Below are positions 59,416-59,588 of a stretch of DNA of 64,000 nucleotides, one piece after another. Position numbers and translations under genes: made by a program. Positions within the stretch are counted from its first letter, which is position 1; every line of letters starts with the position of its first letter. The notes beneath the pieces are model-generated. The model was not told where the DNA came from, made no database searches, and was given only the letters and a program-made list of their open reading frames with translations. The stretch comes from Candidatus Gastranaerophilales bacterium (lineage in GTDB: Bacteria; Cyanobacteriota; Vampirovibrionia; Gastranaerophilales; Gastranaerophilaceae), in contig CALVAK010000009.1 of NCBI GenBank assembly GCA_944325525.1, forward strand, positions 23,574-87,573, written 5' to 3'.

Positions 59416-59445
59416 AAAAAAACCTTACTTTTGTTAATGTAAGGT
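59416..59445 (-). terminator. leader terminator that also sequesters the SD, directly abutting the start codon
   Basis: 7-bp stem, 10-nt loop, U6, then AUG. The 3' arm GUAAGGU contains the only SD-like AAGG. Confidence 0.55.
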
Positions 59446-59552
59446 ACTCAATTATATGCCGGCCGGATTTCGCAGCCAAACACAAAACAGAGCATTCCGA
59501 CTTTAACGGCCGCGATCCGGCTAAGGATTTTCACCTTATTTCCTCATACTAA
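59416..59552 (-). promoter_or_regulatory. structured 5' leader with terminator and antiterminator alternatives (riboswitch or attenuator candidate, class unknown)
   Basis: On the - strand: UAAGG/CCUUA hairpin (59534-59538 / 59522-59526); 14-bp GC-rich helix (59508-59521 with 59462-59477, AA bulge); terminator ACCUUAC/GUAAGGU (59439-59445 / 59422-59428) followed by U6 and then the AUG. Confidence 0.55.
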
Positions 59553-59559
59553 CCAGTAA

Positions 59560-59588
59560 ATTTTAACTCATAAAAAAACTTATGTAAA
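59560..59588 (-). promoter_or_regulatory. sigma70-like promoter for the leader and operon
   Basis: On the - strand: TTTACA (59588-59583), a 17-nt spacer, TAAAAT (59565-59560). Confidence 0.5.

Follow-up and report, generated by a model that had tools for sequence, protein, structure and literature searches.

A probable class-II cobalamin riboswitch in the leader of a three-gene operon of a Gastranaerophilales bacterium

The window analyzed here, a stretch of 64,000 nucleotides (nt) of contig CALVAK010000009.1 from a Candidatus Gastranaerophilales bacterium, harbors on its minus strand an operon of three genes preceded by a structured leader. The leader lies in the intergenic stretch that separates ychF (59658-60755, -) from the first gene of the operon, an open reading frame (ORF) for a protein of 234 amino acids (aa). 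It is very probably a class-II cobalamin riboswitch, belonging to the AdoCbl-II family (formerly AdoCbl-variant, RF01689, a member of the cobalamin clan CL00101), which includes env8HyCbl, and it most likely acts as the OFF switch of the operon. The RNA is, by homology, an ordinary member of this known riboswitch family, and the same homology predicts a corrinoid as the ligand of the leader in the window. Helices, loops and junctions are designated P, L, and J, respectively, and the coordinates of all features are collected in Table 1.

Class assignment and architecture of the aptamer

When Rfam was scanned in E-value mode, the sole credible match in the leader was RF01689, over the full length of the model (34.4 bits, E = 1.2e-5), and this family out-scored the other members of clan CL00101, which were suppressed as lower-scoring overlaps. 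To place this match in context, 80 loci of GTDB species representatives were fetched out of the 207 relatives of the 234-aa gene that were detected. The same aptamer was found upstream of the homologue of the 234-aa gene in 77 of these 80 loci, all from Gastranaerophilales metagenome-assembled genomes (MAGs), with the core GAGGAAA..GGUGAAAnUCC..CCG-L5-CGG-CCGUnAAAGUCGG-AAUGCUC located 125-450 nt 5' of the gene. Among the other three loci, one contig was too short to judge, and two, L015 and L041, have no aptamer. In an Rfam scan of 17 diverse loci at the gathering threshold, 10 leaders passed RF01689 at 36.5-47.5 bits; the leader of L009 scored 34.7 bits. A clade-specific covariance model, R1, was built from 78 aptamers and detected a single strong copy per locus, immediately 5' of the gene, with scores of 63.4-91.7 bits over the 78 leader copies; at 83.6 bits, the window copy is mid-range. 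Because orthologous leaders pass the Rfam threshold and R1 finds one copy per locus, the class assignment is considered settled. No second riboswitch copy was found by R1 in the 64-kb window.

The first-pass annotation of this DNA had been unable to match the leader to a class and had set aside a resemblance to cobalamin riboswitches; the class is cobalamin, and that resemblance was the correct lead. Of the checks that it had suggested, the Rfam run on the leader returned RF01689 in E-value mode, and the alignment of orthologues revealed a conserved leader whose P3-P6 helices covary.

The latter result was obtained by explicit pair counting on an unfitted MAFFT alignment of the 78 aptamers, which represent 76 distinct sequences, with shuffled and slid alignments as controls. 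Over the P3-P6 four-way junction, 94.1% of the cells pair and 10 of the 14 pairs show compensatory changes, a level of pairing that none of 500 shuffles matched and that fell to 22-50% in the slid controls. With P13, the terminator and the kissing loop included in a full model, 91% of the cells are paired and compensatory changes affect 20 of 35 pairs. RNAalifold, applied to the same 78 aptamers, recovered P4 and P6 only, because 3-base-pair (bp) helices are energetically too weak, and explicit pair counting was used instead.

The consensus positions of J3/4, L4 and L6 are invariant or nearly so in the 78 sequences. In the window, GGAAAU (J3/4), GGUGAAAAUCC and CCGUUAAAGUCGG align to the L4, L6 and J3/4 consensus with high posterior probability, and the GUGAAAnUC motif of L4 agrees with that of RF01689. 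The UAAGG-UGAAAAU-CCUUA hairpin reported in the first-pass annotation is indeed present and corresponds to P4 with its T-loop, the stem of which covaries. P3 occurs with GC, AU, GU, and UA pairs among the 76 distinct sequences (GGG/CCC, CAG/CUG, UAG/CUA) and is invariant within the close clade. In P5, 44 sequences have UA and 32 have CG at pair 42-51; at pair 43-50, 74 have GC and 2 have UA, and the UA variants come without a matching change in L13. The segment formed by J6/3 and the P3 3' strand, in which three consensus positions are deleted in the RF01689 alignment, is kept as GAAUGCUC in orthologues. P6 is directly followed by AAUG-CUC, with no P7-P11 extension between P6 and J6/3, and the aptamer therefore belongs to class II rather than class I. 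In two of the related loci (L053:3828-3940 and L054:3807-3920), P6 and the P3 3' strand are separated by an extra hairpin (GGAAGGGG...CCCUCCCAC); class-I cobalamin riboswitches have their peripheral domain at this site.

Table 1. Features of the leader and of the operon, in the order of transcription (window coordinates)
Feature	Position	Strand	Details
Sigma-70-type promoter	59560..59588	-	TTTACA 59588-59583, 17-nt spacer, TAAAAT 59565-59560; 10/12 consensus matches
Cobalamin riboswitch aptamer, class II	59485..59559	-	RF01689 match; clade model R1 match at 59483-59557
Predicted antiterminator 5' strand GUUAGU-A-UGAGG	59542..59553	-	transcript 5' end and P3 5' strand; pairs with CCUUA 59444-59440 and AUUAAC 59438-59433
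P3 5' strand GAG	59543..59545	-	pairs with CUC 59492-59490; 91% paired in 76 distinct sequences
J3/4 GAAA	G59542-A59539	-	directly after P3 5' strand
P4 and L4 T-loop UAAGG-UGAAAAU-CCUUA	59522..59538	-	4/5 pairs compensatory; 95-98% of cells pair
P5 CCG/CGG and L5 GAUCG (59517-59513)	59510..59520	-	L5 is the aptamer half of the kissing loop
P6 and L6 CCG-UUAAAGU-CGG	59497..59509	-	13-nt hairpin; 100% paired, compensatory UA/AU variants
J6/3 AAUG and P3 3' strand CUC	59490..59496	-	shortened counterpart of the B12-box core (consensus AGcGCCaCc)
P13 hairpin UGGCUG / CGGCCG with 7-nt L13 CGAAAUC (59472-59466)	59460..59478	-	11 nt downstream of the aptamer
GAGU, predicted ligand-free alternative PX	59446..59449	-	may pair with GCUC 59493-59490 instead of P3
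Predicted intrinsic terminator and SD-sequestering hairpin	59416..59445	-	ACCUUAC 59445-59439, 10-nt loop, GUAAGGU 59428-59422, U6 59421-59416
Gene 1, 234-aa protein	58711..59415	-	invariant N-terminal G-x-CPHGL...ACPxC motif, long helices predicted
Gene 2, 527-aa protein	57138..58721	-	11-nt overlap with gene 1; several hydrophobic segments seen by eye
Gene 3, 204-aa protein	56561..57175	-	homologue downstream in 47/80 loci

The leader from promoter to terminal hairpin

The leader appears to be transcribed from its own promoter, and the transcript is predicted to start near 59553, some 8-10 nt ahead of GAGGAAA and P3. A promoter of the form TT[TG]ACN-16..18-TAnnnT is found at a conserved position in 52 of 76 homologous leaders. 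The distance from the end of the -10 box to the GG of GAGGAAA is 8-22 nt in 50 of these 52, with outliers at 43 and 45 nt, and amounts to 16 nt in the window. The end of the -10 box lies only 8-9 nt from GG in 12 leaders (L038, L042, L044, L048, L050, L055, L056, L066, L068, L075, L078, and L079); transcription of these would start practically at P3, leaving no room for a P1 5' strand, so that these aptamers cannot have a P1 helix, an unusual condition among cobalamin riboswitches.

The GC content of the leader in the window peaks at 0.47 over 59450-59549, compared with 0.20-0.35 in the flanks, and its minimum free energy (MFE) of -46.3 kcal/mol (z = -3.5) was not reached by any of 200 dinucleotide shuffles. 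The promoter, the local GC richness and the non-chance structure that the first-pass annotation had described are thus borne out, and all the sequence features that it listed exist on the minus strand at the positions it gave. A second promoter-like match in the leader, TTGGCT-17-TATAAT (59451-59479, -; 10/12), shares sequence with P13 and, if active, would give rise to transcripts devoid of the aptamer. It is probably fortuitous, the sequence being AT-rich; three promoter-like matches were found, vs. 1.7 expected from shuffles.

The kissing loop between L5 and L13 is the element that defines regulation in cobalamin riboswitches. The P13 hairpin that presents L13 shows compensatory changes in 8 of 10 pairs among the 35 close orthologues. 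In the window, L5 and L13 are linked by the pairs C59472-G59513, G59471-C59514, A59470-U59515, U59467-A59516, and C59466-G59517, which form 2-3 and 2 bp around A59469 and A59468, both unpaired inside the kissing loop; two unpaired purines at this place have been reported as a strictly conserved trait of the AdoCbl-variant family (PMC5028336). Covariation is seen at kissing-loop pairs 58-105 and 59-104. The register of the MAFFT alignment in L13 differs between subclades, so that counts of "not paired" cells for the kissing-loop pairs are overestimated, and a register-free test was applied. It called for a downstream hairpin with a loop of 6-9 nt whose first two and last two bases are Watson-Crick complementary to the L5 key of the same leader. 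Such a loop matched the leader's own key in 61 of 78 leaders, as opposed to 9 of 546 trials with the keys of other leaders, and each of the six classes of L5 keys was matched by its own loops. An earlier version of the test, in which RNAduplex was used to pair L5 with the whole downstream region after swapping L5 types, was noisy, because L5 types rich in GC bind indiscriminately and a second complementary site is present in the terminator of distant leaders, and the key test replaced it. These covariation data show that the L5-L13 kissing loop is present in this leader family.

The leader ends in a hairpin whose U6 run is immediately followed by the AUG at 59415-59413. The 7-bp stem is 90.6% paired with compensatory changes in 3 of its 7 pairs, and the U-run is kept in most orthologues; a simple terminator scan, with a loop limit of 8 nt, missed this 10-nt-loop terminator. 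Because the only Shine-Dalgarno (SD) sequence of the leader, AAGG at 59426-59423, 7 nt before the AUG, lies in the 3' arm of the terminator, the terminal hairpin is predicted to combine the roles of intrinsic terminator and SD sequester, and control probably acts on both transcription and translation. In these respects the first-pass annotation was right: the ACCUUAC-N10-GUAAGGU-U6-AUG terminator and the SD-like AAGG unique to its 3' arm are where it had them, and its general picture of a riboswitch leader with its own promoter, terminated by a combined terminator and SD sequester, is supported.

How ligand binding might be relayed to this hairpin was approached through folds of nascent transcripts, for which the 35 close leaders were cut just before the 3' arm of the terminator and pair probabilities were averaged per alignment column. 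In these folds, the 5' arm of the terminator, (U)CCUU, pairs with GAGG(A), which comprises the P3 5' strand and the first base of J3/4 (mean p = 0.67-0.79), the GCUC of the P3 3' strand pairs with GAG(C/U) just 5' of the terminator (mean p ~0.4), and P4 remains closed (0.78). By eye, the segments GCUC(CAU)...(AUG)GAG(C/U) are found in most, not all, orthologues. In the nascent fold of the window, UGAGG 59546-59542 pairs with CCUUA 59444-59440 with p = 0.95-1.0, and the helix is extended by pairing of GUUAGU 59553-59548 with AUUAAC 59438-59433 of the terminator loop. From these models we infer an antiterminator composed of the transcript 5' end and the P3 strand. When energies are computed without tertiary or ligand terms, the antiterminator state amounts to -28.9 kcal/mol vs. 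-24.6 kcal/mol for the secondary structure of aptamer plus terminator; the energy of the ligand and the kissing loop would have to tip the balance to the terminator, as expected of a switch. A candidate extra pair of the antiterminator, between the base 5' of GAGG (C/U) and the first base of the terminator loop (G/A), gave an unconvincing hand tally of 7/5/3/8 and was dropped.

The proposed mechanism would thus operate as follows. With a corrinoid bound, the junction and the kissing loop would be locked, GAG would be held in P3 and CCUUAC left free; the ACCUUAC...GUAAGGU-U6 hairpin could then form, transcription would stop, the SD would be buried, and the operon would be OFF. Without ligand, the 3-bp P3 would open, GUUAGU-A-UGAGG would capture the 5' arm and the loop of the terminator (CCUUA-C-AUUAAC), and GCUC would pair with the GAGU beside the terminator. 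As this antiterminator pairing would block the terminator, the operon would be transcribed and translated.

A different switch had been envisaged in the first-pass annotation, namely a riboswitch or attenuator of unknown class with a 14-bp helix between GCCGGAUCGCGGCC and GGCUGCG-AA-AUCCGGC at its core, in which UAAGGU would alternate between the CCUUA of its own hairpin and the ACCUUA of the terminator. Both complementarities exist in the window, the 14-bp helix is used, together with the terminator, in the unconstrained MFE fold of the leader, and UAAGGU:ACCUUA is pairable in 79.5% of the cells in the close clade. However, the class is now identified as cobalamin, and the 14-bp helix, real as its complementarity is, is not a conserved helix: across the 35 close leaders it is 67.5% paired, with its outer pairs kept in only 7-8 of 35. 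P5, P6, and P13 each covary internally, the P5 pairs with each other and not with P13, and between the two strands of the 14-bp helix only four loop positions covary. On this comparative evidence, the helix is best read as a composite that runs together P5, P6 (its 5' arm), P13, and the kissing loop of L5 with L13. As for the proposed UAAGGU:ACCUUA antiterminator, P4 positions 35 and 37 vary without the terminator arm following, so that the pairing is broken in 11 and 6 of 35 leaders, whereas the 3' arm of P4 compensates; moreover, its probability is close to 0 in the nascent-transcript ensemble. That model appears largely refuted by the comparative data and is highly improbable.

Another possibility is that the transcript 5' end is uninvolved, and that a P13 stabilized by the kissing loop competes with an antiterminator formed by the 3' side of P13, or the linker, and the 5' arm of the terminator, or else that an extended L5/P5-P13 helix serves as a ligand-free trap. 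Experiments on a different repressing corrinoid riboswitch have established a P13-based mechanism (PMC10327014). For the window leader, unzipping of P5, P6 and P13 in the ligand-free state could come from the 14-bp extension of the kissing loop, and the AU-rich P13 arms of orthologues (AUUAAU) could, by eye, pair with the AUUAAC of the terminator loop. On the other hand, the P13 3' side and the linker hold no complement to CCUUAC in the window or in close orthologues, the nascent ensemble pairs CCUUA with UGAGG instead, and the MFE fold contains the 14-bp helix and the terminator together, so that the helix is not antiterminating alone. A mechanism of this kind is unlikely for the window leader, and the antiterminator built from the 5' end and P3 is preferred.

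Other lineages seem to have adopted other solutions. In 12 distant leaders (L046, L052, L053, L057, L058, L060, L063, L065, L070, L071, L076, and L077), a different antiterminator is apparent in the last 75 nt, where the 5' arm or loop of the terminator holds a 7-11-nt exact complement of P5/L5/P6, for instance UUGCGGCACA vs. UGUGCCGCAA. Each of these complements has a shuffle p <= 0.025, and they covary (GCAAC/GUUGC vs. GCAGCU/AGCUGC). One aptamer and kissing loop would therefore be wired to different antiterminators across lineages.

Several observations weigh against the identification of the leader as a class-II cobalamin riboswitch that operates as proposed. The window copy scores 2.1 bits under the RF01689 gathering score of 36.5, and a default Rfam scan of the 64-kb window at gathering yields a single match, a tRNA gene (6221-6294, -), leaving the riboswitch unreported. 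P1 is essentially unpaired in the Rfam alignment, where its positions are flagged as non-canonical, and the window has little or no P1. The B12-box core has the short form UGCUC (AAUGCUC). The unconstrained MFE favors the 14-bp helix plus the terminator, a structure that destroys P5 and P6. Regarding the antiterminator, its GUUAAU:AUUAAC extension is significant against shuffles in 13 of the 35 leaders, the window not being one of them (p = 0.13). No covariation was found for GAGG:CCUU among the close leaders, in which both segments are invariant (CCUU is also the anti-SD). The different antiterminator of the distant homologous leaders indicates that the expression platform is not uniform. Finally, no independent connection to B12 emerged from family searches with the regulated proteins.

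The sub-threshold score, the non-canonical P1 and outer-stem positions and the shortened B12 box are also features that might be displayed by a degenerate, non-switching relic that does not bind corrinoids, and whose terminal hairpin sets a constitutive low level of expression or answers another factor; that L015 and L041 carry the gene without the aptamer is in line with such decay. Yet all conserved core nucleotides are intact in the window, as are P3-P6, P13, and L13, and its R1 score is mid-range. The same short, 3-bp P3 and UGCUC are found in orthologues that pass the Rfam threshold, and a conserved operon would be kept silent by a terminator that acted constitutively just ahead of the AUG. 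We thus regard a relic as very unlikely, and a functional class-II riboswitch as by far the more plausible identity of the leader.

The regulated operon and related loci

Gastranaerophilales are an uncultured, gut-associated sister lineage of Cyanobacteria. Homologues of the 234-aa protein were found only in Gastranaerophilales, Melainabacteria or "Vampirovibrio" MAGs, some of them mislabeled bins, and make up a family of hypothetical proteins. A homologue of the 527-aa protein follows the 234-aa gene in 70 of the 80 loci. The operon occurs in several divergent lineages, nearly always under a class-II cobalamin riboswitch, and no paralogue of it was found in the 64-kb window. A gene for a tetratricopeptide-repeat (TPR) protein (55874-56560, +) converges on the end of the operon, an arrangement shared by 21 of the 80 loci, all of the close clade.

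Searches of Pfam, NCBIfam and the PDB with the sequences and profiles of the 234-, 527-, and 204-aa proteins were empty or gave insignificant matches. The motif at residues 14-28 of the 234-aa protein (G14-x-C16-P17-H18-G19-L20...A24-C25-P26-x-C28) is invariant in 21 diverse homologues that share 29-64% identity, and this CPHG...CPxC motif looks like a small Cys3-His knuckle for the binding of a metal or cofactor, placed before long helices. The AlphaFold2 model of the protein shows long helices only, at low confidence (mean predicted local distance difference test score, pLDDT, 62; predicted template modeling score, pTM, 0.32).

Since the switch is inferred to be OFF in the presence of B12, the operon would be needed when corrinoids are scarce, for their acquisition or handling or for B12 sparing. 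It may tentatively be proposed, with somewhat more doubt than confidence, that the three genes form a previously unrecognized cobalamin-responsive system restricted to MAGs of the Gastranaerophilales/Melainabacteria type, perhaps a new machine for corrinoid acquisition or handling or a B12-sparing system. A smaller novelty, equally tentative, would lie in the RNA itself, in which an antiterminator from the 5' end and P3, rather than from P13, would oppose a combined terminator and SD sequester. In the literature searched, no paper mentions both Gastranaerophilales and riboswitch.

Scoring slightly under the threshold of a riboswitch family that is well studied, the RNA by itself adds little, apart from showing that part of the Gastranaerophilales clade (7 of the 17 leaders tested) escapes detection at the Rfam gathering score. 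Its value is rather that of a functional label, which places an operon without family assignments in the B12 regulon through a link that held in 77 of 80 loci. If the identification is true, the riboswitch provides the first functional clue to the three-gene operon and makes it a concrete candidate for steps of corrinoid uptake, handling or sparing in Gastranaerophilales. In addition, the variety of expression platforms served by the same conserved aptamer and kissing loop offers comparative material on the coupling of ligand binding to regulation.

In six of the related loci (L005, L007-L010, and L014), the operon is divergent from another one that encodes a TonB-dependent receptor (Plug and beta-barrel) and an FecCD permease. 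This neighborhood hints at corrinoid acquisition. The TonB/FecCD operon is preceded by its own cobalamin-riboswitch-like element (L009:3623-3714, -; L005, L007, L008, and L010, ~3620-3719, -; L014:3590-3679, -), which was matched by the R1 clade model only, with 23-29 bits, and by no Rfam family even at E <= 1. The element keeps GGGAAA, P5/L5 (CUA-UGCCG-UAG), the base of P6 and GAAUACC. Its P4 is capped by a small loop instead of the GUGAAAnUC T-loop, its P6 has an inserted hairpin, and it is followed by a downstream hairpin, CUUG-CGAGCA-CGAGG, with a loop complementary to L5 and an SD (GAGG) in its 3' arm. Judging from these sequence features, it may represent an undescribed aptamer variant.

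The two loci in which the 234-aa homologue lacks an upstream cobalamin aptamer (L015:3600-4003 and L041:2700-3105) look like natural cases of riboswitch loss, or of replacement by another control. In L015, the gene is still next to ychF, as in the window.

Comparison with known riboswitches

The closest relatives of the leader are found in the AdoCbl-II family, the prototype of which is env8HyCbl. The window leader shares with them the P3-P6 four-way junction without P7-P11, the conserved L4 GUGAAAnUC, L6 GUnAAAGUC, and J3/4 GGAAA sequences, an L5-L13 kissing loop presented by a stem-loop and containing two unpaired purines, and presumably the logic of repression. It differs from them in scoring just under the curated threshold, in its P3 of only 3 bp, in its weak or absent P1, and in the UGCUC of its J6/3-P3 core, where the family has GCCAC. 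In contrast with env8HyCbl, L13 of the window does not contain the ribosome-binding site, and a separate hairpin, predicted to terminate transcription and to sequester the SD, follows P13. The hosts differ as well, as marine sequences were the source of the family's first description (PMC2864571), whereas the leader described here belongs to a gut Gastranaerophilales bacterium.

Class-I cobalamin riboswitches (RF00174), such as that of E. coli btuB, are members of the same clan, CL00101, and have in common with the window leader the conserved core, a kissing loop that connects to the expression platform, and repression that depends on B12, which is predicted in the present case. In contrast, they possess a P7-P11 peripheral domain and a full B12 box, neither of which is found in the window leader.

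With respect to regulation, the most informative comparison is with the repressing corrinoid riboswitch of Priestia megaterium metE, for which it was shown experimentally that the kissing loop chooses between antiterminator and terminator, the antiterminator being formed by the 3' side of P13 against that terminator's 5' side (PMC10327014). An L5-L13 kissing loop that reports the ligand to competing antiterminator and terminator structures, with corrinoid leading to termination, would be common to both systems. The metE riboswitch has a UCCCG L5 and five contiguous kissing-loop pairs, while the kissing loop of the window is interrupted by two A residues. A metE-type pairing of the P13 3' side with the terminator is absent from the ensemble folds of the window and of 35 orthologues; in the window, the antiterminator is predicted to arise instead from the transcript 5' end and the P3 5' strand.

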